DNA of 64,000 nt, from positions 13,470-77,469 of the forward strand of contig JBCDJV010000006.1 in the NCBI GenBank assembly GCA_038747425.1, read 5' to 3'. Source of the stretch: Bacteroidota bacterium (GTDB taxonomy: Bacteria > Bacteroidota > Rhodothermia > Rhodothermales > JBCDJV01). A program made the position numbers and the translations under genes. The notes beneath the pieces are model-generated. The model was not told the origin of the DNA, made no database searches, and saw nothing but the letters and a program-made list of their open reading frames with translations. This document shows, piece after piece, positions 1-63,174 of this stretch. Each line of letters begins with the position of its first letter. Within the stretch, counting starts at the first letter, position 1.

Positions 1-2
1 AA

Positions 3-146
3 CCAGATAGCGATTTCGTGCAAGTATGGAGAAGTGAGGTTGAAGAAGACTATGCGTTTCCTTGGCTGATCTCACCAGGCGACCGCTACGAAGCTCGGTA
101 CGAACACGGTGAGATCATACTCGGTGATACACATGTCCATGAGTAA
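3..146 (+). CDS. C-terminal 47 codons of an unidentified ORF entering from upstream of the window
   Basis: Frame 3 is open from the window edge to TAA at 144-146 (...PWLISPGDRYEARYEHGEIILGDTHVHE*). No family recognised. Local GC is clearly below the window average. Confidence 0.2.
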   Translation, partial: PDSDFVQVWRSEVEEDYAFPWLISPGDRYEARYEHGEIILGDTHVHE

Positions 147-410: not shown

Positions 411-439
411 CTTGCCGGTGAGGTACCCTCACCGGCAAG
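411..439. promoter_or_regulatory. Perfect 13-bp inverted repeat with 3-nt spacer (CTTGCCGGTGAGG-TAC-CCTCACCGGCAAG), 39 nt upstream of the first precursor gene
   Basis: Read directly from the sequence. No T-run follows on either strand, so it is not a canonical intrinsic terminator. Candidate operator or 5'-UTR stem. Confidence 0.35.
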
Positions 440-477: not shown

Positions 478-597
478 ATGAAAACGTGGAATACACCCAA
501 ACTCACTCGCTTTGGCAACGTCCAGGATATCACCGCACAGGGGAACGCAAAGCCCGTCCTCGGTGGTGACCTGATCATCGCAGTCGCCACGTCGTAG
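478..597 (+). CDS. Lasso-type RiPP precursor peptide, copy 1 (39 aa: MKTWNTPKLTRFGNVQDITAQGNAKPVLGGDLIIAVATS)
   Basis: ATG at 478, TAG at 595-597, GAGG 7 nt upstream. The leader fits the published lasso leader pattern (Y/W)xxPxLx3Gx5Tx. The peptide ends in Ser, and an HPrK-like kinase, ABC exporter and B2 protease follow on the same strand. It is below the 60-aa cut-off of the ORF track. Confidence 0.7.
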   Translation: MKTWNTPKLTRFGNVQDITAQGNAKPVLGGDLIIAVATS

Positions 598-880
598 TGG
601 TATCCTGGGCAGGGTAAATCCTGTCAAAGCAGCGAACGACAGTGGTAGGATGCCTCGGAGCCCTGACGTGGGGCCTCACCCGGGTATCATCAGGACACCA
701 CAGCGAAGCGCATGCTGAATGAGCCAAAGGTGCGACTATGAGTAGTCAGACAGCCTAGCATCTAGCATGCAATGTGGCTAAATTATCCTAGGGCTCAGAC
801 ACGCTCTGAATACGTAAGAGTCACAAGGGCTCCTATGTACACGTCCCGAACTTGTTTTTCCTAACCAAGGAGGTTCAGTC

Positions 881-1000
881 ATGAAGACGTGGTCAACGCC
901 TCAGCTGGCTCGCTTCGGCAACGTCAAGGATATCACCGCACAGGGCAACGCAAAGCCCGTCCTAGGTGGTGACCTGATCATCGCGGTCGCGACGTCCTAA
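881..1000 (+). CDS. Lasso-type RiPP precursor peptide, copy 2 (39 aa: MKTWSTPQLARFGNVKDITAQGNAKPVLGGDLIIAVATS)
   Basis: ATG at 881, TAA at 998-1000, strong AAGGAGG at 867-873. The C-terminal 19 residues are identical to copy 1 with only synonymous DNA differences. The leader motif is the same. Confidence 0.75.
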   Translation: MKTWSTPQLARFGNVKDITAQGNAKPVLGGDLIIAVATS

Positions 1001-1041
1001 GTGGCCACTGTAGACTCCACCCTGGAGTTATCAGACTGGGT

Positions 1042-1079
1042 CCCGCCATGGCTTCGGCCAGGGCGGGGCTTTTTCTTTG
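1042..1079 (+). terminator. Intrinsic terminator / attenuator directly after precursor copy 2
   Basis: CCCGCCATGGC-TTCG-GCCAGGGCGGG: an 11-bp stem with one mismatch and a TTCG loop, followed by CTTTTTCTTT. Confidence 0.6.
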
Positions 1080-1170
1080 ATGGACCTGTTCGTGCGGAGA
1101 CTTCGGTGCGAACGACGTGAGGCTCGCCGGTGTACAAGCTCTCCTCGTATCGTGCCAGCTCTTGTGATCC

Positions 1171-2100
1171 ATGCCTTCGCTTGCCACGCCGCATCGTTAC
1201 ACCTTCGCCGGATCGCTCATTGCATCGGACCGCCTTCTGCCACTCGTGACGTCTCAGGGCGCCGAGCAGGAACCGACGCTTCGCATCCATGCCGAACGCG
1301 AACTCGGTGCTCAACCACCTGTAGAGGACATCGGGTGTGTGTCTTCCGAGCCGGGGCAAGCCCTGCTGTACTACCCGTGGACCGGCTACATACGCGTCAC
1401 GGGGGGAGCACGGATTACCTACAACCCCGCCTCGGAAGACGAGGCTGCGTTGCTTGATACTTTGCTCACCGGTGCGGCCCTGGGCGTCGCCCTGCACCAG
1501 CGCGGTCACTTCACCCTTCATGCCAGTGCGGTGCAAATCGGAGACGAGGCCGTCGCGCTGGTCGGCGGGATGCGTGCAGGCAAAACCACGCTCGCTTGCG
1601 CCTTCCAGGCCGCTGGCCACACAATCCTGGCGGATGACATGATTGTATTCGGTGGTTCAGAGCAGGTATCGGTGTGGCCGGGCGTGCCGGAGGTGCGCGT
1701 TGACCCGGATGTGCTGCTGAACATTGTGCGGATAGAGCCGACCACCCTGCGCCGCATACACCCTTCGTCGGGTCGGCGCATCCTGCCTGTACCGACCCAG
1801 CAGGTTCCGGCCCCGGTCCCCCTGCGCGCCATCGTTTCGCTGACCGAGGGTGAACGCGCACCATGGGAGCGCCTTCGCCCACCACAGGCCTTCATGGAAC
1901 TGCTGCAGCATGCCTATGCACCACGCCTGTTGCGCCATGACAGTGTCACGCCGGGTCACCTGAGTCAGCTGCAGCGCTTGGCCACTCAAGTCCCAGTGTA
2001 CACCCTTCACCGTCCCATGAGCCTGAAAGACGTGCCTGATACCGTCTCGTGGGTCACCGAGCGACTGGCCCAGCGGACGACCAGCACGCCCGACCCCTGA
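1171..2100 (+). CDS. HPr-kinase-like (HprK-related) serine kinase of lasso/RiPP clusters
   Basis: 309 aa. The block LHASAVQIGDEAVALVGGMRAGKTTLACAFQAAGHTILADD parallels the HPr kinase catalytic core (HG..v...G.GvLi.G.SG.GKS..AL.L...GH.LvaDD). Its position is directly after precursors that end in Ser. Confidence 0.75.
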   Translation: MPSLATPHRYTFAGSLIASDRLLPLVTSQGAEQEPTLRIHAERELGAQPPVEDIGCVSSEPGQALLYYPWTGYIRVTGGARITYNPASEDEAALLDTLLTGAALGVALHQRGHFTLHASAVQIGDEAVALVGGMRAGKTTLACAFQAAGHTILADDMIVFGGSEQVSVWPGVPEVRVDPDVLLNIVRIEPTTLRRIHPSSGRRILPVPTQQVPAPVPLRAIVSLTEGERAPWERLRPPQAFMELLQHAYAPRLLRHDSVTPGHLSQLQRLATQVPVYTLHRPMSLKDVPDTVSWVTERLAQRTTSTPDP

Positions 2101-2308
2101 TAAAGCAACGCCGCGGAGCCAACCGCGCCATCATCTGGCATTGACGCATGTGCCATGCGTTAAAAACGCACCGTGGGCAGGAGGTAGATCTTGTATTCTG
2201 TGGGTGCGCTCTCCACTACAGCCACGCCTACCTCGACGGGGGCTTGGCCTTCACCAGGACCACCCACTAGTTGGCATCAAGGCCTCCCGCTGCGGTTCCC
2301 AGCGTATT

Positions 2309-4243
2309 ATGGATTCTGTAAAGCGCCGTCTTAAAGAGATCAATGAGTTGTTCGCGTACCTACCGCGAGCCTTGAGCCTTGTGTGGGCTGCGGCCAAGTG
2401 GTGGACGCTCTCCTGGGTTCTCTTGCTGCTGCTCCAAGGGCTGATGCCTGGGGCCGTGGTCTATCTCACCAAGCTGGTCCTGGACGGTGCCGGCGCCGCG
2501 ATTGGCCAAGGGCTCACCTGGGACAATGCCGAGCAGGTGGTGCAGCCTCTCATCTACATGGTGGTGGTCCTGGTCGTCCAACAGCTCGTGGGTAGCTTGA
2601 GCACCTGGGTCAACACAGCGCAGGCGGATGTAACCCGGGATTACATCCAAGGCTTGGTGCACGACAAGGCGATCCATGTGGACCTAGCGTTCTTTGACTC
2701 GGCCGAGAGTTACAACCGGCTGCACCAGGCTACCTCGCAGGCCAGCACACGCTCGCTGGAAATGCTCCAAAGCATGGGGTCGTTGTTCCAGAATAGCATC
2801 ACGCTAGTCACCATCGCGGCGCTGCTGATTCCGTATGGGGCCTGGATTCCACTTGTCCTCGTCCTCAGCACGTTACCCGCGCTGTGGGTGGTGGTCCAGC
2901 ATAATCGTCGGTACCATGCGTGGTGGAAGCAGGCCTCCATGGAAGAGCGGCAAGCTCGGTACTACGACATGATGATCACCATGGACCATTCGGCGTCTGA
3001 GGTGCGCATCTATGACAATGGGACCTACTTCAAGGACCTGTACCAGTCGCTCCGGGCCAAGCTGCGCGAGGAGAAGTTAGACCTCGTCAAGAAACAAGGA
3101 CTCGCGAGTTTCACCTCAAGCTTCATCGGCTTGGTGGCTGCCGGCGGCATCATGGCGCTGATGATCTGGCGGGCTCTCCAGGGGCTGGCTACCATCGGTG
3201 ACCTCGGCCTGTTCTACCAAGCCTTCAATCGCGGGCAAGCCTTGCTTCGAACCCTGCTCAGCAGTGCCGGACGCATCTTCACCAGCTCGCTCTTCCTGCA
3301 GCACCTCTTCGACTTCCTGGAGCTGTCGTCCAAGGTGACCAGTCCGGAGGAGCCTGTCCCGGTGCCCGCGCAGATGCAGGAAGGCATTCGCTTTGAGGAT
3401 GTCAGCTTTGCCTATCCAGGGACAGAGCGCAAGGCGCTGAGTAACTTCGATCTGCACATCCCCGCTGGCAAGGTCACCGCCATCGTGGGCCAAAACGGGG
3501 CCGGGAAGAGTACCTTCGTCAAGCTGCTCTGCCGTTTCTATGACCCCTCCGAGGGGACCGTCACCATTGATGGTACCGATATCCGATCCTTCGACGTGGA
3601 CGAGCTGCGCCGCCTAATCACGGTGATGTTTCAGTTCCCGATGCGCTATCAGGACACGGCCATCAATAACATTGCGATCAGCGATGTGCACCGCCCGCTG
3701 GATATGGAGCGTGTGCGGGCGGCGGGCGAGGCCGCCATGCTCACGGACATCGTCAAGAAGCTTCCATTTGGCTATGAAACGCAGCTCGGACGTTGGTTCA
3801 CGCAAGACCTGGACAAAAACATGGAGCTCAGTGGCGGTGAGTGGCAGCGCGTGAGCTTGGCGCGGGCCTTCTATCGGGAATCGCCCATCATCGTGCTGGA
3901 CGAACCCACGAGCGCCATGGATGCCTGGTCTGAATATCAATGGATGCAAGGCTTCGGGCAGCTCGTGGAGGGACGGACGGCCCTCATGATCACGCACCGA
4001 TTTACGACGGCCATGCATGCTGATGTCATCTATGTGATGATGGATGGGGCGGTTGTTGAGGTCGGCACGCATCGCGAGTTGCTGCAGCAGGACGGCTACT
4101 ATGCCCAGTCCTGGCGAGCTCAAATGGATCAAGGCTGGCGCGCTGCCCATGAAGAGGAGACCGCACAGCCCGAGGCGCCCAGGCCACCTCAGGATCTCGA
4201 TCCGACACCGATGCCGTTCGAGGACAACCCGCATTCGCTTTGA
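2309..4243 (+). CDS. ABC transporter, fused permease/ATPase (McjD-like peptide exporter)
   Basis: N-terminal six-TM-type region, then Walker A GQNGAGKST, signature LSGGEWQRVSLARA and Walker B IIVLDEPTSAMD. The start is taken at ATG 2309 (MDSVKRRL). The 2141-2308 extension of the ORF looks non-coding. Confidence 0.85.
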   Translation: MDSVKRRLKEINELFAYLPRALSLVWAAAKWWTLSWVLLLLLQGLMPGAVVYLTKLVLDGAGAAIGQGLTWDNAEQVVQPLIYMVVVLVVQQLVGSLSTWVNTAQADVTRDYIQGLVHDKAIHVDLAFFDSAESYNRLHQATSQASTRSLEMLQSMGSLFQNSITLVTIAALLIPYGAWIPLVLVLSTLPALWVVVQHNRRYHAWWKQASMEERQARYYDMMITMDHSASEVRIYDNGTYFKDLYQSLRAKLREEKLDLVKKQGLASFTSSFIGLVAAGGIMALMIWRALQGLATIGDLGLFYQAFNRGQALLRTLLSSAGRIFTSSLFLQHLFDFLELSSKVTSPEEPVPVPAQMQEGIRFEDVSFAYPGTERKALSNFDLHIPAGKVTAIVGQNGAGKSTFVKLLCRFYDPSEGTVTIDGTDIRSFDVDELRRLITVMFQFPMRYQDTAINNIAISDVHRPLDMERVRAAGEAAMLTDIVKKLPFGYETQLGRWFTQDLDKNMELSGGEWQRVSLARAFYRESPIIVLDEPTSAMDAWSEYQWMQGFGQLVEGRTALMITHRFTTAMHADVIYVMMDGAVVEVGTHRELLQQDGYYAQSWRAQMDQGWRAAHEEETAQPEAPRPPQDLDPTPMPFEDNPHSL

Positions 4244-4375
4244 GGAAGGCCTAGGCGGCTGATATACAGCAAAAGCACACCGAAGTGTGCGTACGGGGTG
4301 TGGCCAAAGAGGGAACACCGAACCAGCATCGAACGAGGTCGCTTGAGACGGGTACTATACACTGTTTAGGATTCT

Positions 4376-4858
4376 ATGCTACTGACGATGCCCCAGCAAA
4401 GACGTGCCTTGCGCTACATCCTTCAGCGCCTCCGCTCGCTGACGGGGGCGGAGTGGAAGCATCTGCTCACGGCGTTATGGCTGATCCCAGCCGTGCGGCT
4501 GGCGCTCTCGGCGTTTCCGTTCAAGTCTATGCTGCGGTTCATCGATGAGCTGGACCCCGCCAAACAGGAGGCCTCACCGGCCTACGTGGACGGCGCCAGT
4601 TGGGCGCTGGCTCTCATGGCGCGCACCCTCCTAGGCGACAAGCCGTGCCTCACTCAGGCACTGGCCCTACAGATCCTGCTACGCCGCCGAGCCATTCCGT
4701 CCACGCTCCGCATCGGAGTCAAGCGGGATGAGCAAGGCGGGCTGGCGGCCCACGCGTGGTTGGAGCGCGAAGAACGCGTGCTGATTGGGGGGGCCGACTC
4801 GCCGAAGCAGTACGCGCTGCTCCAGAGCCCCGATCAATACGGGGGCGCCCTGGTCTGA
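4376..4858 (+). CDS. Lasso peptide biosynthesis B2 protein (transglutaminase-fold leader peptidase, PF13471-like)
   Basis: 160 aa. The N-terminal helix is typical of B2 (LLTALWLIPAVRLALSAFPFKSML). Catalytic Cys context is KPCLTQALALQILLRRR and His context is LAAHAWLE. Confidence 0.8.
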   Translation: MLLTMPQQRRALRYILQRLRSLTGAEWKHLLTALWLIPAVRLALSAFPFKSMLRFIDELDPAKQEASPAYVDGASWALALMARTLLGDKPCLTQALALQILLRRRAIPSTLRIGVKRDEQGGLAAHAWLEREERVLIGGADSPKQYALLQSPDQYGGALV

Positions 4859-4983
4859 GTCCGTCGCCATACCGGGTGGCAAAACGGTGCGGTGCAACAA
4901 TAACCGGATGGACCGCGTCGTTAGCTGGGGTATCAACCGGGGTCCTGTGCCCTGAGCCTGCTTTGCTCTCAACCCACGCTTCC

Positions 4984-5586
4984 ATGCCTCACACCGACGA
5001 ACAGCTCGTGGCCGCCTACCTGGAACGGTCGGACCAGCAGGCCTTCAGAATGCTGGTCGAGCGTCATCAGGAGCGGATCTTCGGCTACCTGCTGGGCATG
5101 GTGCGGGATCGCCACCTCGCGAACGACCTGTTCCAAGAGACGTTCTACCGCGTCATCGCCGCGATGCAGAGGCAGCGCGGTACGTATGCCAGGCAGGGAC
5201 GCTGGTTGGCGTGGGTCATGCGCATTGCCCGCAACGCGACGCTCGATCATCTGCGCAGCCGAAAGAAGTGGCAAGACGTGGATGCCGGTCATGATGACGA
5301 TGATCGCTCCTACTGGGACTCCCTCCCGGATGCGGGTCCAGACCCTGAAGCGCTGCTGCACCGGATGGACCAAGGGGCCTGGCTGGCCCGGGCCATCGAG
5401 CGCCTGCCGAACGAACAGCGAGAAGTTCTCCTCCTTCGCCAAAACACAGATCTCACCTTTCGCGAGATCGCTGACCTCACCGATGTCTCGATCAATACAG
5501 CGCTGGGACGGATGCGCTATGCCCTCCTGAACTTGCGTAAGATGATGGTGGCCGAACAGCGAGCTACAGGCAGCCATGAAGTGTAG
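4984..5586 (+). CDS. ECF (sigma-70 family) RNA polymerase sigma factor
   Basis: Region 2 (FRMLVERHQERIFGYLLGMVRDRHLANDLFQETF) and region 4 HTH (REVLLLRQNTDLTFREIADLTDVSINTALGRMRYA). ATG at 4984. Confidence 0.9.
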   Translation: MPHTDEQLVAAYLERSDQQAFRMLVERHQERIFGYLLGMVRDRHLANDLFQETFYRVIAAMQRQRGTYARQGRWLAWVMRIARNATLDHLRSRKKWQDVDAGHDDDDRSYWDSLPDAGPDPEALLHRMDQGAWLARAIERLPNEQREVLLLRQNTDLTFREIADLTDVSINTALGRMRYALLNLRKMMVAEQRATGSHEV

Positions 5587-10397: not shown

Positions 10398-11210
10398 ATG
10401 AACTTAGGTCTGACCGATCAAGTGGCGCTCATCACAGGGGCTAGCGCTGGCTTGGGGTTTGCAACGGCCGAGGCGTTGCTTCGTGAGGGCGCCCGTGTAG
10501 CACTGTGCAGCCGGGACCAAGCCCGCATCGAAGCAGCCGCCGCCAGCCTGCGTGCGTCGGTGGGCGCCCCTGATGACCATGTGCTGCCCCTGGTGTGCGA
10601 TGTCACCGACGAGGCGCAGATCCAGGCGACGTTAGCCGCTGTGGTGGACGCCTGGGGAGGGCTGCAGGTACTCATCACGAACGCTGGGGGCCCACCAGCC
10701 GGTGCGGCCCTGGCCTTCGACGCTCCGCAGTGGCGTCGGGCTCTGGAGCTCAACCTGATGAGCACGGTCAACCTGTGCCGCCATGCACTTCCACGCTTGC
10801 GCGAAAGTGCTCAGCGGGGGCAACTAGCCCGGGTGGTCATGGTGGCCTCGATTTCCGCCAAGCAACCGATTCCAGGTCTGGCTCTGTCCAACACCGCCCG
10901 CGCAGGCGTGCTGGGCTTCATGAAGAGTCTAGCTGCAGAGGTAGGGCCCGATGGGGTCACGGTCAACGCCGTCTTGCCGGGCTACACGCGCACCGAACGC
11001 CTCACGGATTTGGCCATATCGATTCGTACACGCACCGGGCAGACGGTAGAAGAAGTAGAGGCTGGGTGGGCTGCCGAGTCCGTGCTGGATCGTATTGCCG
11101 ATCCCGTGGAGTTCGCCGAAGTGGTGGCCTTCCTGGCGAGTCGACCGGCTTCGTACCTGACCGGCTTGGCGATCCCTGTGGACGGAGGGGCCTCTCAGCA
11201 TCTCCTCTGA
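10398..11210 (+). CDS. SDR family oxidoreductase
   Basis: ALITGASAGLGFA (TGxxxGxG), NAGG, and the S...Y-less classical layout with N-terminal Rossmann fold. 270 aa. Confidence 0.8.
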   Translation: MNLGLTDQVALITGASAGLGFATAEALLREGARVALCSRDQARIEAAAASLRASVGAPDDHVLPLVCDVTDEAQIQATLAAVVDAWGGLQVLITNAGGPPAGAALAFDAPQWRRALELNLMSTVNLCRHALPRLRESAQRGQLARVVMVASISAKQPIPGLALSNTARAGVLGFMKSLAAEVGPDGVTVNAVLPGYTRTERLTDLAISIRTRTGQTVEEVEAGWAAESVLDRIADPVEFAEVVAFLASRPASYLTGLAIPVDGGASQHLL

Positions 11211-11287
11211 GTCTGATCACAACGGCGTCAGGTAATGGTACGCCTTCCCTTTTTGTCGTCCATCCCCCCTTTTATCGACGTTATCGT

Positions 11288-12199
11288 ATGTCAGAGGCTG
11301 TCATTTTCGCACGGACACTGCTTCGTTTGGACGGCGTGGGGCGCGTCACGGCCGGGCGGTTGCTGCGTCACTTTGGTCGGTACAGCGAGCTGGTGCAGTA
11401 CCCGCGGGAGCAAGTGTTGACCCGGCTGAAGGGTGTGCCCCGTGCGGCGGCCCTCGTGAAGCAGCTCTTTGATCGAGACGCCATGGAGCCTCATCTCCAG
11501 GCCGCCCGGGAGGACCTGGCCCACTTGAGCGCTAAGCGGGTCGCGCTGCTGACCCAGCGCGAGGCCGCGTGGCCGCGCGGTCTCAATGATTTGCCGGCGT
11601 CGCAGCGCCCGCTCATCATGTACGCGTACGGCAATGTGGTCTGCCTCACTCAGCCTCGGGTCGCCATCTTCGGCGCTCCAGGACTTTCTGTGGAGGCTTT
11701 TGAGGGGGCTCAGCGCCTGGCACGCCGCATTCTACAGGGAGGGGGCGTGGTGATCACGGGGATGGCCCACGGGTTCGATGTGGCCCTGCAAAAACTCGCC
11801 CATGCGGGCCCGGCACGATATCCTGGGGCCGTTGTGGCGGACATGGGCATGGCTGTTCTGCCCAAGCCCATGCGCCCTCACGTAACGGCCGCCGTACGCG
11901 CGGCGGGGGTATTTCTGTCGCCCTTTGACATGGATCATGGTCCGTTTGCCTATGATGAAAAGGAGAGTGCCCTCGTGCGGGCGGCCTTGGCCGACGCGGT
12001 GGTGTTCGCCGATCCTCAGCCGGACACCCCCGCCGCTCGTGCCTTGGCGTGGGCGCAGGAAGCGGAGCGTCCGGTTTTTGTGGTGGGTCCTCCGGCGCCG
12101 CATCTGGCTGAACGCATCCACCGTGTGACGACCTCCACTGACGAAGACTGGGTGCTCGAGGCGGCGGGTCTCCGTCCCCGTAGCGGCGAGGACGGGTAG
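11288..12199 (+). CDS. dprA: DNA-processing protein DprA-like
   Basis: N-terminal LLRLDGVGRVTAGRLLRHFG helix-hairpin-like region, then VAIFGAPG...VVITGMAHGFDVALQKLAH Rossmann core. ATG at 11288. The upstream part of ORF 10595-12199 overlaps the SDR gene out of frame. Confidence 0.65.
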   Translation: MSEAVIFARTLLRLDGVGRVTAGRLLRHFGRYSELVQYPREQVLTRLKGVPRAAALVKQLFDRDAMEPHLQAAREDLAHLSAKRVALLTQREAAWPRGLNDLPASQRPLIMYAYGNVVCLTQPRVAIFGAPGLSVEAFEGAQRLARRILQGGGVVITGMAHGFDVALQKLAHAGPARYPGAVVADMGMAVLPKPMRPHVTAAVRAAGVFLSPFDMDHGPFAYDEKESALVRAALADAVVFADPQPDTPAARALAWAQEAERPVFVVGPPAPHLAERIHRVTTSTDEDWVLEAAGLRPRSGEDG

Positions 12200-40427: not shown

Positions 40428-42068
40428 CTACCGCACCAGAACTAACGTTTGGGTTTCATCCAGCGTGATCCCAGCGAAGCCCTCCACCGTCAGCCGCGCA
40501 AAGTAGACGCCAGGTGCGAGGCCCTCGGCGTTGAAGGCATGAGCGTACCACCGCCGCCCCTCCACGAACCCGTCGGCCAAGGTCGTAATTTCACGGCCCG
40601 TGGTATCGTAGAGCCGAAGGAGCACGAACCCGTCGTCGTCCAGGTAATACCGGATCGTGGTCTGGTCCTGAAACGGGTTCGGGAAGGTCTCGGTGAGGAC
40701 GCTCTGGGTGGGAAACTCGATCTCCACAACGGTGGTGGCCAGCAGCTGCTCGCGACCGGTGCTGCTGATCCCAAACAGCCGGTAGGTCACCTCGCCAGGG
40801 CCTACGGTGTTGGCATCCGCGATGCTCAGGGACTCGACGGTGGTGCCTTCGAAGATCACCTTCTCTTGGGGGCCAAAGACGCGCACCACCCGGTACGAGA
40901 CGATATCGCTCACCTCCACGAAGTCCCACGAAATGGCTACCACCCCGTCGGGGTCTACCTCCGCGATGACGGTGGCCTGTCCAATCGGCTGGTTGCCCAC
41001 GAGGAGCAGCTCTGTCATCGCCTCCTGAAATTCGTCGAGGAGTTCGTAGTTGTTATCGCCGGGGCAGGCGGTGCTTCCGAAGTCCCGGTGGCCTCGAAGC
41101 TGCCTCGGCGCTACGCCATACGTCTCCGAGAGGAACGCGAGCAGCACCTCAAGGGAAGCCCGCGCCTCGGGGGTGATTTCGTCGCGGCAGGAGCCGCCCT
41201 CCGGGGGGTGGAAGCAGCCGAGCAAGCAGATGCCAATATTACCGGTGTTGGCGCCCCCGGCATGGGCCCCTTGAACCAAGACCGGGCCGCTCTCCAGCGT
41301 CACATTCCCATTCAGGAAGGGGCGGCCCTGAAAGACGTTGCCGCCCTTGTCGATCACGAAGTGGTACCCGATGTCGCTCCAGCCGCGTCCATTCTGGTGG
41401 AAGTCCTGAATGCGTTTCACCTGTTCCTTGCCGTCCTCCAGGGTGGTGGCACTGAAGCCCGCTGCGTGATGCACGGTCAGGAAGTCGTAGGAGGGCCGGG
41501 CCAGGCGGATAGGCGATCCGCGGAAGGACGAGGCGCCCCAGGCTGATCGGGTAACGAGGGGCGGGGGCACGATCAGGTCATTGTCCTCGAAGAACCGTTG
41601 GTCCTCCTCACCCCGGGGCGGCAACAGGGCGGCCTCGGGCCACCAGCGAAAAACGCCTGCGCGGAGGCCCTCTAGCGGCGCGCCATCCGGGACGACAATA
41701 CGCACCTCGAACGGCTGCCCTTTGTAGAGATCGGCCCCCCGGTAGGCCGCCATGAAGAAGCCATCGGTAAAGGAGGGCACGATGTAGAGGGGATGCCAAG
41801 CCCCCCAGCCGTCATCCGTCGCGAAGCGCACCTCGCCTGTCACGTCCTCGGCGGAGCCTCGCACGATGCCATGCAGGGCCACCCCGTTGTAGGTGCGCTG
41901 CGCCCCCTGGGCACGCAAGGTCACGGTACGTGCCGCTCCCTGAAAGCTAGATCCCGTGATCTCCAGGGCCACAGCCTCGTCCACGACATCATCCACAGAC
42001 TGCCCCCAGGCGGTCGCAGCGCTAGCGAAGAGCAGGAGGCAGAGAACAGAGCAGAGGCGGCGGGCCAT
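40428..42068 (-). CDS. N-acetylmuramoyl-L-alanine amidase (Amidase_2/PGRP-like) with T9SS C-terminal sorting domain
   Basis: TVHHAAG...IQDFHQNGRGWSDIGYHFVIDKGGNVFQGRP...GAHAGGANTGNIGICLLG. The C-terminus FPNPF...LRLYDTTGREI...GVYFARL...LVLVR is a T9SS type-A CTD. ATG at 42068 gives a signal peptide. Confidence 0.8.
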   Translation of the reverse strand: MARRLCSVLCLLLFASAATAWGQSVDDVVDEAVALEITGSSFQGAARTVTLRAQGAQRTYNGVALHGIVRGSAEDVTGEVRFATDDGWGAWHPLYIVPSFTDGFFMAAYRGADLYKGQPFEVRIVVPDGAPLEGLRAGVFRWWPEAALLPPRGEEDQRFFEDNDLIVPPPLVTRSAWGASSFRGSPIRLARPSYDFLTVHHAAGFSATTLEDGKEQVKRIQDFHQNGRGWSDIGYHFVIDKGGNVFQGRPFLNGNVTLESGPVLVQGAHAGGANTGNIGICLLGCFHPPEGGSCRDEITPEARASLEVLLAFLSETYGVAPRQLRGHRDFGSTACPGDNNYELLDEFQEAMTELLLVGNQPIGQATVIAEVDPDGVVAISWDFVEVSDIVSYRVVRVFGPQEKVIFEGTTVESLSIADANTVGPGEVTYRLFGISSTGREQLLATTVVEIEFPTQSVLTETFPNPFQDQTTIRYYLDDDGFVLLRLYDTTGREITTLADGFVEGRRWYAHAFNAEGLAPGVYFARLTVEGFAGITLDETQTLVLVR

Positions 42069-42154
42069 AGAAGAGGGTGTGAGCGAGGTGAGATAGGACG
42101 AGCATTGTCGGCTATGGACGCTCGAACACGTAGGTTCCCAGACCCACAGGCCAT

Positions 42155-43207
42155 CTAGAAGCCGAGGTCCAGGGTGAACCAATGGGTTTGCTCCAGGCGG
42201 CCAAACTCGGCGTAGGCATAGTCCACGCGAGCCCGCAGGCTGCGGTCGATGCGCACGTTGAGGCCGGCGCCCAGGGTGAGCCCTTGTTCGCCGTCTTGCT
42301 CGTACAGGTTTCGGTAGCCCGCGCGGAAGGAGATGAGGTCGCGGAAGGTGTATTCGGCACCGAGGTTGACATACTGCGTGTTGTCATTGGGGTTCGTCGC
42401 GTCCGTCATGGCTACGAAGCGGTGCTCGGCCGTGCTGATGGCATCCCAAGCGAGGCCTACGCGGAACATGAGCGGCAAGGCATGGCGCTCCGTCTGGTAC
42501 TGGGCATTGACGATCTCCACATTGCCCTGCTCGTCCCGAGAGGGGTCCTGGCTGAAGAGGTTGTCTCGCCCGCCCATCTGCATCTTGGAGCCGAAGTTGG
42601 AGATGCTGGCGCCCAGGCGCAGCCGTTCCACCGGGGTTCTGAACAGCGTGCCGATATCCACGGCCACGGCCGTGGCTGCGCTGTGCCAGATCGACTCGCG
42701 GATGAACTTAGCCGACCCCCCGATGGAGAACCGGTCTGTCAGCATGCGGCCATAAGTCACCTGCATGGCCAGGTTCTGCACCGAGAACCGCTCGCCGGTG
42801 CCGTCGGGCTGCCGGGTCGTCCGGACGTCCATCTCGCCCGAGTCAAGCAGCGTCAGGGAGAAGCCCAAGGTGCCGAGTGCCCCGAGATTGATCCCAAAGG
42901 CCGCATAGTTGTAGGTGATGTCGGCCAGGTATTGTGTGTAGTTGAACTGGACCGCGGTGCCGCGCAGGAGGCCCAGGCCCGCTGGGTTCCAGTACATGGC
43001 CGAGAGGTCATTGGCCTCGGCCACAAAGGCGCCGCCCAGGGCCACAGGCCGAGCGCCCACGCCCAGCTTCAAGAACTGAGCGGCGGTGGTCCCGGTCTTG
43101 GTGATGGTGCCTTGGTCCGGGTTGACCGATTGGGCCTGGGCCGTGGAGATGGGCCATGCGGCGAGCCCGATCGAAACGGCACAGAGGAGGAAGAAGCGCT
43201 GTAGCAT
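42155..43207 (-). CDS. PorV/PorQ-family outer-membrane beta-barrel protein
   Basis: Signal peptide. GARPVALGGAFVAEANDLSAMYWNPAGLG signature. Alternating beta-strand pattern ending in ...WFTLDLGF. Confidence 0.7.
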   Translation of the reverse strand: MLQRFFLLCAVSIGLAAWPISTAQAQSVNPDQGTITKTGTTAAQFLKLGVGARPVALGGAFVAEANDLSAMYWNPAGLGLLRGTAVQFNYTQYLADITYNYAAFGINLGALGTLGFSLTLLDSGEMDVRTTRQPDGTGERFSVQNLAMQVTYGRMLTDRFSIGGSAKFIRESIWHSAATAVAVDIGTLFRTPVERLRLGASISNFGSKMQMGGRDNLFSQDPSRDEQGNVEIVNAQYQTERHALPLMFRVGLAWDAISTAEHRFVAMTDATNPNDNTQYVNLGAEYTFRDLISFRAGYRNLYEQDGEQGLTLGAGLNVRIDRSLRARVDYAYAEFGRLEQTHWFTLDLGF

Positions 43208-50345: not shown

Positions 50346-52016
50346 CTATTTGAGGAGGGTCATGCGGCGCGTCTGCCGCTGCTGTGACGTCTCCAGCGCA
50401 TACAGGTAGACGCCGCTGCTCACGAGCTGCCCGGCGTCGTTGCGACCGTTCCACTGGACCTCGTAGCTGCCTGGCGACGAAGCCTGGCCGTCAACCAACG
50501 TGCGCACGAGCTGGCCCATCACGTTGTAGACCCGCACCGAGACCACGTCGGCCTGGGGCAACACGTAGGAGATGGACGTGCTGGGGTTGAACGGGTTGGG
50601 ATAGTTCTGGCGCAAGATATAGGCGCCCGGGAGCTCGGCTACATCGTCTGTGGACGTCGCCTCAGCTTGGGCCTCGACCACGATGATCATCGGTTGCCCG
50701 GGAGACGAGGCGAACAAGTTGGTCAGCACGACTTCGTTGAGGCCATCCCCATCGAGGTCATCGGTGACGGTCATCGGGTAGTAGCGGTCCAACGGCTCGC
50801 CCACGCTCTCGAGCAGGGAGCTCCAGGTGTAGCTCGTCGAATCGGCGTAGCTGCCGGTGCCATTGTACTCGATGCGGGAGACGATTTCGGCGGTGCCGTG
50901 CGAGGCCACGATGTCCACGTTGCCGTCGCCATCGATGTCGCCCATGGCGCCTCCGCGCGCACTGCCGGTGGCATCGAACATGCCGATGGTGGTGAAGCTC
51001 TCGAACGTCAGGGTGGACACGTCGTCCAGGCTGTCCAAGAAATACAGGTTGCCATCGGTCATCGGATAAAACAGCTCCAGGCTGCCGTCGCCGTCCACGT
51101 CGTCGAACAGCATATCATGCGAGTTGAACCCGCCGGGGTCGTCCACGGGGTTGACGCCGTTAAGCTCAGCCTGTAGCTCGTAGGTGTCGGCCCCGGTGGC
51201 TTCCCAGACTGCCATGCTGAAGTTGTCCCACGTGTTGACCCAGATCTCGTTGAGGCCGTCGCCGTCGAAGTCAGCCACGTCCACGTCGTAGACGCCGCCG
51301 CCGCCCAAGATGGCTTCCCCGGCTTCGAACTCGATGCTGAAGGTGGCGAAGGCGTTGAGGTCGCCGTTGACGGTGGCCACCACGAGCTCGCGAGCCCCGC
51401 TCCGGCGAGACACCGTCAGGAGCTCCTGCGTGCCGTCGTTGTCCACGTCCACGATTTGGAAGCCAGCCGGCCGGAAATCGGCGCTGCCCTCCCGGTCATA
51501 GCCCCAGACGGCCGTCGGCTCATCCGGGAAGACGCCGGAGTCGTCTTGCTCAAACACAAAGAGGTCTTCGGCATCGTCATTGATGGTGGGCACGCCGAAG
51601 TAGATCTCGTTGAGGCCATCCCCATCGATGTCGCCATGGCCGAGTGCGGGGAGGGAGTTGGAGGGGATGTGCGAGTAGTGCCACACGTACTCATACGTGT
51701 TGTCGGCGGTGGCTTCGTAGAGGTAGACATCCAGGACGCCGGGGTCAGGGCCTTCAGGCGCTAGGGTTTCGTCGGTGGTGAAGAGAATTTCCTTGAGACC
51801 GTCCCCGTCCAGGTCCATCCCGGCTTGGACGCTGCGGGCGCCGAAGGCGGGGCCTCGGGGGAAGAGGTCCGGGAAATCACGTGGATCGAGGGTCCAGGAG
51901 ACGGTCAGGTCCGAGCCCGGCACATACTGGGCCACGGCGGGGGCGGCTGAGAGGCCCGTCATCAGACCAACGAGAAGGGTGCAAACGAAAAGTCGACCTG
52001 GTAGCGTACGACGCAT
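50346..52016 (-). CDS. FG-GAP/VCBS-repeat protein with T9SS C-terminal sorting domain
   Basis: Repeated D.DGDG..E(I/L) Ca-binding turns. CTD is NYPNPFNPSTSISYVLP...VRVYNVMGQLV...SGVYLYAL...MTLLK. Confidence 0.8.
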   Translation of the reverse strand: MRRTLPGRLFVCTLLVGLMTGLSAAPAVAQYVPGSDLTVSWTLDPRDFPDLFPRGPAFGARSVQAGMDLDGDGLKEILFTTDETLAPEGPDPGVLDVYLYEATADNTYEYVWHYSHIPSNSLPALGHGDIDGDGLNEIYFGVPTINDDAEDLFVFEQDDSGVFPDEPTAVWGYDREGSADFRPAGFQIVDVDNDGTQELLTVSRRSGARELVVATVNGDLNAFATFSIEFEAGEAILGGGGVYDVDVADFDGDGLNEIWVNTWDNFSMAVWEATGADTYELQAELNGVNPVDDPGGFNSHDMLFDDVDGDGSLELFYPMTDGNLYFLDSLDDVSTLTFESFTTIGMFDATGSARGGAMGDIDGDGNVDIVASHGTAEIVSRIEYNGTGSYADSTSYTWSSLLESVGEPLDRYYPMTVTDDLDGDGLNEVVLTNLFASSPGQPMIIVVEAQAEATSTDDVAELPGAYILRQNYPNPFNPSTSISYVLPQADVVSVRVYNVMGQLVRTLVDGQASSPGSYEVQWNGRNDAGQLVSSGVYLYALETSQQRQTRRMTLLK

Positions 52017-59477: not shown

Positions 59478-59519
59478 GCAGGATGCCTTCTCCCTTTGCC
59501 ACCACGCTGTTGTAGTCAC

Positions 59520-61406
59520 ATGGACGCCCCCTCCAAACGCGGTCAGTTCACCATTACCTCCACCCCAGACGAGACTCGTGTCGTGCGGGAGGCCCCCGCC
59601 GAGGCCCGCGAAGAGGTGGCCTTGCCGCTGCGCCTGCTGTTCGTGAGCGACCTCCTCCCTCACCGATCGGCGCCCAACTGGGAGGAGGGCACCCACCGTG
59701 TGCGGGTGGACCCGTACCGGTACACGGATCTGATGCAGTCGTATGCCCCTCGGTTGGACATCACCGTGCCCAACCGGCTGAGTGAGACGCCCAGCCACCT
59801 GGAGCTGGAATTGACCGTGACCAGCCTCAAAGGACTGCGGCCGGATCGCCTCCTGAGCCAGATCCCTGAGCTGACCCGGCTCACGGCCATCCGAGGCCTT
59901 GTGGGGCAAGTCCAGGAGAAGCAGCTCGGGTTGGATCGATTCAAGGCCGAGTTGAAGGCCATCGGCGTCGAGGCTGCCTGGGCCGCTCAGCTGTACGATG
60001 CTCTCGCCCAGCCGCCCGCCGCCCCTCCACCATCCCGTAGCACCTCCTCGGCCGCGCCCTCCTCAGACGATGCAGCCTTGGACCGCTTGTTTTCGATGGT
60101 CGATGTAGAGGGGGACAGCGAGGACGAGGCGCCGCCGGCGCCAGAGGCAGAATCGGGGACGGGCGGTATGCTCATGGATGCCCTCATGGGCGCCGTCACC
60201 GGTTCGAGTGCACCGTCCGCGCGCGTCAAACAGGACGCCGCCACCCTGATGCTGGACGATCTGGACACCACGATCCAAGCGCAGCTTAACGAGGTGATGA
60301 GCCACCCGGCTGTCCGAGCGCTGGAACGTTCGTGGCGCAGCCTCAAGCTGCTCGTGGACCGGCTGGACATGCGGCGTGGGATCCAACTGGAGGTGCTGGC
60401 TGCCGCGAAAGACGACCTCAGCGAGGCGCTGTACCATCAGGTCCTGATGCCAGAGCACGCGGCCACGGACCCGTCGCATGTACCGCTGGCCGCCATCGTC
60501 CTCGACACGGACTTCTCCCATACCAACGCTGACCTCGAATTGCTAGCCGACCTGGCGGAGACCTGTGCGAGCTTGCAGGTGCCGTTGCTGGCGGGCGTGG
60601 AGGCCTCCTTCTTTGGTGTTGAGACGCCGACCGGCCTCAACAAGCTGCCGCTGCTGTGGCAGCATCTCCAAGGCTATGCCTATGCGGAGTGGAATGCGCT
60701 CCGGAAGAAGCCTGAGGCCTCCTACGTGTCCCTGTTTGTGCCTCCCCTCCTGCTCCGCGCGCCCTACGGACCGGACCACAGCGCCGGGCTGCCGTTCGAG
60801 GAAGACGGATACGTGTGGGGATCAGGAGCCTTGGCGGCGGCCATCATGATGGGGCAGAGCTTTGCCCAGACCGGATGGCCAACGCATCTGGGTAGCACGA
60901 AGCACCATCGCCTCCAAGACATGCCGACCTGGCCCAGCCAGCAGGGGGCCATCTCGGTGGCTGCGCTCATCAACGAAGACAAGCAGGTCGAGCTGGCGCA
61001 ATCTGGCTTCGGGGTGCTGAGCGGCCGACCGAACCAAGACGTGGTCTACCTGGCGCAAAGCCCCACCCTCGCCGACCTCGAAGCCGGGGCCGAGGCCGAG
61101 ATGACCACCGCGTCCCTGGCGGGCCAGCTGTTCGCCTCACGAATGGCTCAACTCTTGCTGCGCTACCAGCAAGCACTGCCCGCTGGTACCTCCACGGCCT
61201 CAGCCCAAGCCGATCTGCAACATCGGCTGGCTCACCTGTTCGGGGTTGGGGAGGAGCAAGAAGAGGTCTTCCGCGTGCAACCCGTACCCGAGCTGGCGAC
61301 GGCGGCCTACGAGGTCCTGGCGGTGGTGCTGCACCCCCCAGAGACCGTGGTGCCCCGGTCGGTCCGGCTCACGTTGGCCGTTCAGGTGACCAAGGCCAGC
61401 GGCTGA
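59520..61406 (+). CDS. T6SS contractile-sheath-like protein: single-polypeptide TssB(VipA)-TssC(VipB) fusion
   Basis: The N-terminal part resembles TssB: EEVALPLRLLFVSDL......VPNRL....LELELTVTSLKGLRPDRLLSQIPELTRLTAIRGL. This compares with VipA ELPLKLLAIGDY...VPNRL...L.F.SLKDF.P..V..QVPEL..LL.LR. A ~75-aa P/S/A/D/E-rich linker follows. The C-terminal part resembles TssC: LDDLDTTIQAQLNEVMSHPAVRALERSWRSLKLLV..., ...AEWNALRKKPEASYVSLFVPPLLLRAPYG, ...YVWGSGALAAAIMMGQSFAQTGW, ...LFASRMAQLLL. ATG at 59520. Confidence 0.75.
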   Translation: MDAPSKRGQFTITSTPDETRVVREAPAEAREEVALPLRLLFVSDLLPHRSAPNWEEGTHRVRVDPYRYTDLMQSYAPRLDITVPNRLSETPSHLELELTVTSLKGLRPDRLLSQIPELTRLTAIRGLVGQVQEKQLGLDRFKAELKAIGVEAAWAAQLYDALAQPPAAPPPSRSTSSAAPSSDDAALDRLFSMVDVEGDSEDEAPPAPEAESGTGGMLMDALMGAVTGSSAPSARVKQDAATLMLDDLDTTIQAQLNEVMSHPAVRALERSWRSLKLLVDRLDMRRGIQLEVLAAAKDDLSEALYHQVLMPEHAATDPSHVPLAAIVLDTDFSHTNADLELLADLAETCASLQVPLLAGVEASFFGVETPTGLNKLPLLWQHLQGYAYAEWNALRKKPEASYVSLFVPPLLLRAPYGPDHSAGLPFEEDGYVWGSGALAAAIMMGQSFAQTGWPTHLGSTKHHRLQDMPTWPSQQGAISVAALINEDKQVELAQSGFGVLSGRPNQDVVYLAQSPTLADLEAGAEAEMTTASLAGQLFASRMAQLLLRYQQALPAGTSTASAQADLQHRLAHLFGVGEEQEEVFRVQPVPELATAAYEVLAVVLHPPETVVPRSVRLTLAVQVTKASG

Positions 61407-61485
61407 CCTGTGTCTTTTCAGGGCACCGCCGGTGGCGGAGCGCCTCTGTTCCACCTGCATGTTGCCGCCCACGTCGACCTTGCCG

Positions 61486-63174
61486 ATGCCACCTCGCCTC
61501 GCGATTCAGGAACAGGACGGCTCCGGGCCGATCCGGACCTTCGATGCCTCCTTCACGATGGGTCGCAGTGAAGACTGCGAATACCCCGTGCCGTTGCCCA
61601 TCGTCAGCCGCCGGCATACCACGGTAGAGCTTGATAGCCAGGGCTGGCTGGTTCGAGACCTGGGCAGCGCCAATGGCACGTACCTGGACGGCAAGCGGGT
61701 GCGTGACGCGCGCCTTGAGGGCGAACACGTCCTCAAGTTGGGCAACCGCGGGCCCGCCTTCACCGTGTCGCTGGTGGACACAGCGGCGGCTTCTTCTGGG
61801 CGTGACGCCCCGGCCAGCCGGCCCGCCCCGTCCCGGCGTGCCGACCGCCTCGCCTCGCCGACCTCGATCACCGAAGCCTCGGCGGCAACCTCTGTGGAGA
61901 CGCCAGGTCCCGCCGAGCGGAGCACAGCGGCCCGGGGCCCAGAGCCCCCGGCGGGACGCCGTGGGGCCAACGAGGGCCGGTCCCTGAGCGAGTACATGGA
62001 ACACTACTTCGGCGAGTCCGGGCAGCCCGCTGGGGAGCACACGCAGATGATCCGGCAGGCCTACCAGGTCGTCGAACAGAAGAAGCGGGTCCGGTTCATC
62101 TATATCTTGGCGGCCTTGGGCGTGGTGGTGGTGCTCGTCGGGGGGTATGCCATCTACCAGCGCATGGAGCGGGCCGAGCTGGAGACGTTAGCGCTGGAGG
62201 CGTTCGAAGACGTGCGCCGCCAGAATGCCAGCATCCTCCAGGCACAAAATGCCATCGCGTTGAAAGCCGGGGAGCCGGATGCGACGCTCCAGGACATCAT
62301 CCGTGACCTGCAGCAGACCCGCGAGCGGCAGCTGGATCGCTACGACAACTTCGTGGAAGAACTGGGCTACCGACGGGCGCCCACGGCTGAGGAGCGGGCC
62401 ATCTACCGGGTGGCCCGCATCTTCAACGAAAGCGAGATACAAAGCGCCATCCCCGCCGATTTCATCCGGTCTGTGCGAGATACCATCGCCATCTGGCAAT
62501 CGAGCAACCGGTTTCAGCGGGCGGTGGAGCGGGCCAACCGCCTCGGCTACACGCCGATGATCGTGGAGACCTTCCGCAAGTATGGACTCCCCCCGGAGTT
62601 TTTCTACCTGTCCATGCAGGAGAGCAACTTCAACGAGCGGGCGATTGGGCCTCGCACCCGGTGGGGGATTGCCAAGGGCATGTGGCAGTTCATCCCGAGT
62701 ACAGGGGAAGCCTACGGCCTCGCCATTGGACCTCGGGATGACCTCCGCTCGTTCGACCCGCAGGACGACCGGTTCGACCCCGCGAAGGCCACAGACGCCG
62801 CCGCACGCTACCTGCTGGAAATCCACAGCCAGCTCTCGGGAGCTTCTAGCCTGTTGGCGATGGCCTCGTACAACTGGGGCGAGCGCCGCGTCGTACCCCG
62901 TCTGCAAGATATGCTGGCCGAAAACGGCATCACCGACGAGACCGATGAGGTCTCCGACCGTTCGTACTGGGCGTTCTACAAGAAGTACGGCCGCATCATG
63001 CCTGACGAGACCAAAGGGTACGTGGCGCGCATCTTTGCCGCGGCGGTGATCGGGCAAGATCCCCAGCTCTGGGGCTACGACATGGAGAACCCCTTGCTGC
63101 CGTATCTGGAAGGGGGCGCTTCGGTGGATACCACTCCCCGTGCGGCCGAGGCCGAGGCGGACGGGGACCTGTGA
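61486..63174 (+). CDS. FHA domain - transmembrane - lytic transglycosylase (SLT) domain protein
   Basis: FHA: FTMGRSEDCEYPVPLPIVSRRHTTVELDSQGWLVRDLGSANGTYLDGKRV. Then a S/P/A-rich spacer and a TM segment FIYILAALGVVVVLVGGYAIY. SLT motifs: YLSMQESNFN, GIAKGMWQFIPSTG, MASYNWGE. The start lies between GTG 61432 and ATG 61486. Confidence 0.8.
   Translation: MPPRLAIQEQDGSGPIRTFDASFTMGRSEDCEYPVPLPIVSRRHTTVELDSQGWLVRDLGSANGTYLDGKRVRDARLEGEHVLKLGNRGPAFTVSLVDTAAASSGRDAPASRPAPSRRADRLASPTSITEASAATSVETPGPAERSTAARGPEPPAGRRGANEGRSLSEYMEHYFGESGQPAGEHTQMIRQAYQVVEQKKRVRFIYILAALGVVVVLVGGYAIYQRMERAELETLALEAFEDVRRQNASILQAQNAIALKAGEPDATLQDIIRDLQQTRERQLDRYDNFVEELGYRRAPTAEERAIYRVARIFNESEIQSAIPADFIRSVRDTIAIWQSSNRFQRAVERANRLGYTPMIVETFRKYGLPPEFFYLSMQESNFNERAIGPRTRWGIAKGMWQFIPSTGEAYGLAIGPRDDLRSFDPQDDRFDPAKATDAAARYLLEIHSQLSGASSLLAMASYNWGERRVVPRLQDMLAENGITDETDEVSDRSYWAFYKKYGRIMPDETKGYVARIFAAAVIGQDPQLWGYDMENPLLPYLEGGASVDTTPRAAEAEADGDL

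Follow-up and report, generated by a model that had tools for sequence, protein, structure and literature searches.

What can a lasso peptide locus produce when it encodes neither the cyclase nor the leader-binding protein of its pathway? Lasso peptides count among the RiPPs (peptides that ribosomes synthesize and that are then post-translationally modified), and what defines them is a threaded ring that a cyclase makes. The question is raised by positions 478-4858 of a 64,000-nt stretch of DNA (hereafter the window) from a Bacteroidota bacterium (Rhodothermales; JBCDJV01), corresponding to positions 13,470-77,469 of the forward strand of contig JBCDJV010000006.1 in assembly GCA_038747425.1. 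The listing of open reading frames (ORFs) gave five genes on one strand in the order A-A-K-D-B2: two 39-aa precursors (A1 and A2), a 309-aa kinase (K), a 644-aa exporter (D) and a 160-aa leader peptidase (B2), each found where an earlier reading of the letters without database searches (the sequence-only reading) had put it. Neither a cyclase (C) nor B1, the protein carrying the RiPP recognition element (RRE), was found beside them. On balance, we lean towards the view that the locus is a displaced and rearranged fragment of a canonical phospho-lasso pathway, with B1 and C either encoded elsewhere or recently lost, leaving the fragment stranded.

The two precursors, A1 (478..597, +) and A2 (881..1000, +), followed the pattern MKTW(N/S)TP(K/Q)L(T/A)RFGNV(Q/K)DITA plus a shared core, QGNAKPVLGGDLIIAVATS, and both ended in AVATS. 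The leader of A1 was MKTWNTPKLTRFGNVQDITA, from which that of A2 differed at four positions; the A1 gene was also called in the Logan assembly, and an AGGAGG ribosome-binding site lay upstream of A2. Leader residues Trp4, Pro7, Leu9 and Thr19 fell at -17, -14, -12 and -2, giving both peptides the aromatic residue, Pro, Leu and Thr expected of lasso-type leaders, in which -17, -14 and -12 are the B1-binding positions and Thr stands at -2 (PMC10368454). Cleavage after Ala20 is predicted from this register. NCBIfam lasso-leader models matched the precursors weakly (lasso_cyano, E 2e-6, below cut-off). Thr18 and Ser19 were the sole hydroxyl residues of the core, and the C-terminal Ser noticed in the sequence-only reading was borne out in both peptides (...ATS), as in paeninodin-type precursors; Ser also occupied the C-terminus in 11 of about 26 related precursors. 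Between A1 and A2 the cores differed by five synonymous and no non-synonymous changes, and the leaders, with their four amino-acid differences, had a ratio of non-synonymous to synonymous substitution rates (dN/dS) of 0.15. A word-indexed search for precursors returned two candidates, which were A1 and A2 themselves, and an exhaustive HMMER search of 1.84 billion representatives returned long repetitive false positives only.

The kinase (1171..2100, +) carried a P-loop (GGMRAGKTT) and an ADD motif, and matched HprK_rel_A at E 7e-7 and Hpr_kinase_C at E 0.01, both below cut-offs. Its AlphaFold model (predicted local distance difference test score 88.8) matched PEPCK and HprK/P structures in Foldseek with E values of 6e-8 and 8e-6, the family-invariant residues His117, Gly137, Lys138 and Asp156 were kept, and homologues with up to 38% identity were located inside lasso clusters. 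The HPr-kinase-like core proposed earlier was therefore upheld by fold and by the setting of its homologues, though not by family matches above cut-off. Such a kinase beside a precursor is a mark of paeninodin-type clusters, whose kinases modify the linear precursor at its C-terminal Ser before the leader is removed (PMC8498205). We considered whether the N-terminal domain of K might be a hidden RRE, and ruled this out as the model showed residues 1-86 to be an all-beta PEPCK-type domain and not a winged helix. No match was found when the kinase was queried against a genome collection of species representatives. Downstream, the ATP-binding cassette (ABC) exporter D (2309..4243, +) fused transmembrane and nucleotide-binding domains in 644 aa counted from an ATG, and its reading frame was already open from a TTG at 2141. 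B2 (4376..4858, +) lay 3' of D across a gap of 133 bp and scored 87.8 bits on the NCBIfam model lasso_biosyn_B2 NF033537 (cut-off 33) and 79.2 bits on Pfam Transglut_core3 PF13471 (cut-off 26). Cys91, His126 and Glu130, invariant across 28 homologues, were present in it. These scores, far above the cut-offs, bear out the proposal that B2 is the transglutaminase-like Cys protease of lasso clusters, represented here by the protease half alone.

The search for C and B1 covered 72.8 kb, made up of the 64-kb window and 8.8 kb upstream of it taken from Logan contig L001, with which the window aligned from L001 position 8831 at 99.96% identity. Across this region tblastn with the C and B1 proteins of related clusters gave no match, and the B2 positive control was recovered. 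We then built profile hidden Markov models (HMMs) from the proteins of relatives, six cyclases and six B1 proteins, and ran them with filters off on all stop-to-stop frames of the window, L001 and a partial relative, L005. The best six-frame value for the cyclase HMM was E 0.75 and that for B1 was E 0.057 at 10 bits, neither significant, and no SGGxDS pyrophosphatase motif occurred in any frame of the window and the upstream region. Pfam scans of the large ORFs in the window returned unrelated families only, and the 332-bp left junction held no remnant of C or B1. The lack of a cyclase and an RRE, reported from the letters alone, thus withstood tblastn, family HMMs and a motif scan. The locus is unable to make a lasso peptide unaided.

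For comparison, we assembled about 20 related clusters through B2 homologues (35-50% identity) and the exporter-specific peptide LFYQAFNRGQ; they came from metagenome-assembled genomes (MAGs) of Rhodothermales, Rubricoccaceae and Terriglobia and from metagenomes, and are uncharacterised. The six-gene relatives (L006, L008, L009, L010, L011, L013, L020, L024, L025, L034 and L039) ran B1-B2-C-(A)-K-D, and L036 was an exception with C-A-K-B1-B2-D. Complete relatives shared 46-53% identity with the window in D, 28-47% in B2 and 21-38% in K, and B1 was directly 5' of B2 wherever both were present, with at most one small ORF between them (L002). Together with L019 and L036, the six-gene clusters resembled the window in their homologous K, D and B2 and in their leader register, and many of their precursors ended in Ser; they differed in having C as well as B1, the latter directly 5' of B2, whereas the window had neither and carried B2 after D. 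As B2 now lies on the far side of D, the window was rearranged and not simply truncated. In this respect the sequence-only reading had the gene calls right but overlooked the altered order.

The rearrangement was not confined to the window. L005, a 3.8-kb Logan contig whose left part was not assembled, encoded D, B2, a sigma factor and an anti-sigma-like protein in the same order as the window, with identities of 66% for B2, 81-86% for D and 85% for the sigma factor. The D-B2 spacing was 76-133 bp across the two. As D-B2-sigma is common to both, the rearrangement is older than the split between them. In L005 the exporter was broken by a frameshift near residue 510 (1198-1584 of this short assembly), which may reflect a faulty assembly or a true pseudogene; codons either side of the frameshift had a dN/dS of about 0.07. 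Between the window and L005, dN/dS was 0.27 for B2 and 0.07 for D, with dS saturated. The identities of B2 and D in this pair (66% against 81.5%) stood in a proportion like that of the complete pair L006/L010 (74% against 89%), indicating that B2 has been evolving at a normal rate relative to D. Judged from these sequences, the A-A-K-D-B2 genes are intact, have evolved under purifying selection and have been functional over a long period. A metagenome scan with the exporter peptide recovered 26 loci, all of them canonical relatives (45-52% identical) and none a second A-K-D-B2 locus, a viral-contig scan gave no match, and none of the collections searched yielded a further locus of this architecture.

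The core itself departed from what is known of lasso peptides. Known lasso rings have seven to nine residues (PMC8498205, PMC10368454), and a change of ring size by one residue usually cripples production (PMC13352647). Asp11 was the sole acidic residue of the A1/A2 core, and positions 7-9 lacked both Asp and Glu. When every retrieved locus was scanned for lasso-type leaders, the window proved not to be alone in this: 16 related precursors had the canonical register with Asp at 7, 8 or 9 (nearly all at 8 or 9), and in seven distinct others the first usable Asp was at 11, 13 or 14. The latter were A1/A2 (478-597 and 881-1000 of the window), L018 (363), L019 (2633), L034 (3533), L036 (9282) and two in L020 (2972 and 3370), one of the L020 precursors being repeated in L030 (3457). 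In all seven, Lys stood exactly six residues before Asp (K-x-x-G-x-G-D; KPVLGGD, KAPGTGD, KTFGTSD, KTFGFGD, KNFGSGD, KNGGSGD and KQPGLGD), a hydrophobic stretch followed, and four to seven extra residues separated the Thr-x cleavage site from the Lys. A cyclase adjoined the displaced-Asp precursors in L019, L020, L034 and L036. The arrangement x4-K5-x5-D11 plus hydrophobic stretch recurred beside cyclases in L019, L034 and L036, with longer N-terminal overhangs in L020. As the same Lys5...Asp11 pattern occurs beside cyclases, Asp11 is a trait of the class and not a scar of cyclase loss, and we dropped the missing Asp/Glu at 7-9 as support for such a loss. Crude neighbour-joining trees of C and D did not separate the two precursor classes cleanly; the window exporter fell nearest to those Rhodothermales clusters that have Asp9 in their cores. 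The fixed Lys-Asp spacing and variable N-terminal overhang suggest either a link between the Lys side chain and Asp or trimming to make the Lys residue 1. By count, a ring closed from the Lys side chain to Asp would have 26 atoms, as in an eight-residue ring closed on Glu, with tails on both sides; the literature cited here describes no lasso linkage of this kind. The Lys-x5-Asp class breaks the rule that places the ring acceptor at core positions 7-9, and offers a concrete target for heterologous expression.

If the locus is a displaced part of a canonical pathway, K would phosphorylate the C-terminal Ser of the linear precursor, B1 would bind leader residues Trp-17, Pro-14 and Leu-12, B2 would cut after Ala20 with Thr at -2, C would close a ring on Asp11 and D would export the product. 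We favour this dependence on B1 and C because the RRE-binding leader motif has been kept, because characterised split B2 enzymes and the kinase BsfK depend on B1, and because the precursor class is shared with cyclase-bearing clusters. Characterised split B2 enzymes need B1, and in the Bsf system B1 is required for B2 cleavage and boosts the kinase (PMC10368454). The missing genes might then lie elsewhere in the genome, making this a split cluster, which we propose tentatively. Alternatively, though we consider it unlikely, a recent deletion on the left side, now occupied by a type VI secretion effector cassette, may have removed B1 and C and stranded a module that is still intact.

Characterised systems offer partial parallels. 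Paeninodin-type clusters of Paenibacillus and Thermobacillus (PadeK, ThcoK) and the proteobacterial SyanK type likewise have a kinase beside a Ser-ending precursor, an ABC exporter and a split B2, but they also carry B1, C and an Asp/Glu at core positions 7-9, which the window lacks (PMC8498205); the window kinase is likened to PadeK, ThcoK and SyanK by description. The bsf cluster of Bradymonas sediminis (bsfA, B1, B2, C, D, K, N) is, like the window, Gram-negative and kinase-bearing, its leader has a comparable YxxPxL at -17 to -12, and its K and B2 are strongly B1-dependent. It differs in having B1, C and N, in that BsfK targets Ser3, in an Ile at -2 and in a ring formed between Gly1 and Asp8 (PMC10368454). 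Pseudomycoidin, from Bacillus pseudomycoides (cited in PMC8498205 and PMC10368454 from Zyubko et al. 2019), is a kinase-modified peptide with a C-terminal Ser. Going by the title of the paper so cited, its synthesis in vivo went ahead without leader or leader peptidase, so that a lasso pathway can do without some 'core' parts. The window may be compared with this, although the situation is reversed: there the cyclase is present and the peptidase dispensable, whereas in the window the peptidase is present and the cyclase absent.

Several points weigh against a displaced canonical pathway. Neither B1 nor C occurred in the 72.8 kb, and the left junction kept no trace of them. To our knowledge, split lasso clusters have never been described, and placing B1 and C in trans is pure inference, the search having spanned 72.8 kb of the genome. 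Had the loss been recent, intact ORFs and long-term dN/dS values would be mute on present function. None of the four positions at which the leaders of A1 and A2 differ is a motif position, yet this would be expected by chance in about a quarter of cases (1001/3876 = 0.26). Finally, Asp11 fits no characterised lasso ring, and the product would not be predictable even with a cyclase.

Two rival explanations concern the left side of the locus. One is that this is an ordinary phospho-lasso cluster with C and B1 immediately upstream of the window, as in L004, the locus of the nearest kinase relative, in which C is directly 5' of two precursors and K. The sequence-only reading had suspected C and B1 just beyond the left edge, and held that a cyclase and an RRE immediately upstream would make the locus ordinary. 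Both were looked for in the 8.8 kb now available and neither was there; instead, L001 (1-8976) encoded ClpV, VgrG, a PAAR protein, a 940-aa OmpA/peptidoglycan-binding protein and a 361-aa protein without a family match. This flank is a cargo region of type VI secretion, and with the C and B1 searches blank across it, an ordinary cluster is scarcely credible; a cyclase further out, past these genes, would make the cluster a split one and not an ordinary one. The other supposes a chimeric contig, in which the middle of a lasso cluster was fused to type VI secretion genes. In its favour, the window comes from a metagenome-assembled genome and GC falls at the junction, but the same junction was present in an 88.9-kb NCBI contig with identical B2 and kinase (probably the window's own source) and in a 42.3-kb Logan contig from a separate assembly, with differences at 5 of 12,100 bases. 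No repeat able to mislead an assembler was found at the junction, and the unusual D-B2 adjacency was independently present in L005. Two NCBI MAGs with the label Bacteroidota bacterium (MEM1125516.1 and MEM1125518.1; MEM9665682.1) contained the locus proteins; the junction is no one-off assembly product, and we regard an artefact as very improbable.

A more substantial rival takes the missing genes at face value: in an autonomous, cyclase-less pathway K would phosphorylate the C-terminal Ser, B2 alone would remove the 20-residue leader and D would export a linear 19-mer without a macrolactam, whose N-terminal Gln could become pyroglutamate. The lack of C and B1 in cis over the whole region searched agrees with this, and it would explain why B2 was kept in two lineages without an adjoining B1, under purifying selection since before the window and L005 split. 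The core is strictly conserved between A1 and A2 and has no Asp or Glu at 7-9, and its tail beyond Asp11 (LIIAVATS), as read from the sequence, has no aromatic or charged residue. The plug of a lasso ring is usually one or the other. Against such a pathway, the leader retains an RRE-binding motif though neither K nor B2 contains an RRE, a persistence that would go unexplained, and the characterised split B2 enzymes require B1 (PMC10368454). The Lys5...Asp11 core also occurs beside cyclases and so is no adaptation to cyclase loss, leaving the persistence of the heptad unexplained as well, and the architecture is represented by one lineage and one partial relative only. An autonomous pathway therefore seems unlikely, and we are equally doubtful of the broader proposal that the locus is self-sufficient without RRE and cyclase (yielding a linear phospho-19-mer), that the class is not a classical lasso substrate and forms a Lys-Asp isopeptide, or that both are true. 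The sequence-only reading had offered a new, cyclase-less RiPP logic as one of two alternatives; the lack of C and B1 nearby agrees with that, but the leader motif, the rate of B2 evolution and the class-shared core do not favour it, and that the locus produces something new is unproven. What the locus does offer is a conserved, selected module without cyclase or RRE, which raises the question of whether lasso clusters can be split across a genome or the enzymes have been turned to making a peptide that is not a lasso. If split clusters do exist, they would probably be missed by cluster-based mining tools such as RODEO and antiSMASH. The locus is moderately interesting as a candidate for a split or cyclase-less lasso system.

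Some of the loci retrieved alongside these clusters had features of their own. In L003 (9541-12518) a related kinase accompanied a PqqD protein and a nucleotidyltransferase (NTP_transf_5) gene, with a short B2-like stretch (11161-11292) just 5' of the latter; the surroundings held sulfotransferase, MurJ and Wzz genes, and no cyclase was found within 10 kb upstream. L016 (468-7072) encoded a methyltransferase-like protein, an ABC exporter D, K, NTP_transf_5 and a PrmA-like methyltransferase. We considered L016 as a second partial cluster and set it aside as uninformative: no B2, C or B1 occurred in the 7 kb downstream, but only 1.4 kb upstream was covered. L006 (1617-3410, -) and L010 (1486-3282, -) each had a second asparagine-synthetase-like gene about 7 kb 5' of the lasso cluster, whose product of about 597 aa aligned with no more than the N-terminal 390 or so residues of the cyclases; identity there was about 30%, and a true AsnB-type enzyme is the probable assignment.

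The remaining features concern the edges of the locus and the wider window. On the left, the boundary is the 3' end of the 361-aa gene (1..146, +), which belongs to no known family and is the last gene of the ClpV-VgrG-PAAR-effector module; it and the 940-aa gene had somewhat lower GC, and the 940-aa protein gave a weak metalloprotease match. Positions 147-477 were non-coding with lower GC, in agreement with the low-GC, mostly non-coding upstream region described from the letters. About 40 nt 5' of A1, within this region, lay a perfect 13-bp inverted repeat with a 3-nt spacer (CTTGCCGGTGAGG/CCTCACCGGCAAG; 411..439, without strand), which could be an operator or an RNA hairpin; no T-run followed the repeat and it had no Rfam match, nor did an Rfam scan of positions 1-1300 return any family. 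A terminator-like hairpin with a T-run (1050..1078, +), recognised by consensus match only, stood 3' of the precursor genes and may govern how many precursor transcripts are made per enzyme transcript. On the right, the boundary is the extracytoplasmic function (ECF) sigma factor gene (4981..5586, +), whose assignment in the sequence-only reading was confirmed by family searches and whose junction with B2 was kept in L005. Type VI secretion genes also occurred near the right end of the window, about 60 kb off (59496-63174), encoding a fused VipA/VipB sheath protein and an FHA/SLT protein. Two large proteins of the window (40428-42182, -, and 50346-52016, -), one an amidase and one with FG-GAP repeats, carried type IX secretion C-terminal sorting domains, which fits a Bacteroidota/Rhodothermota host.

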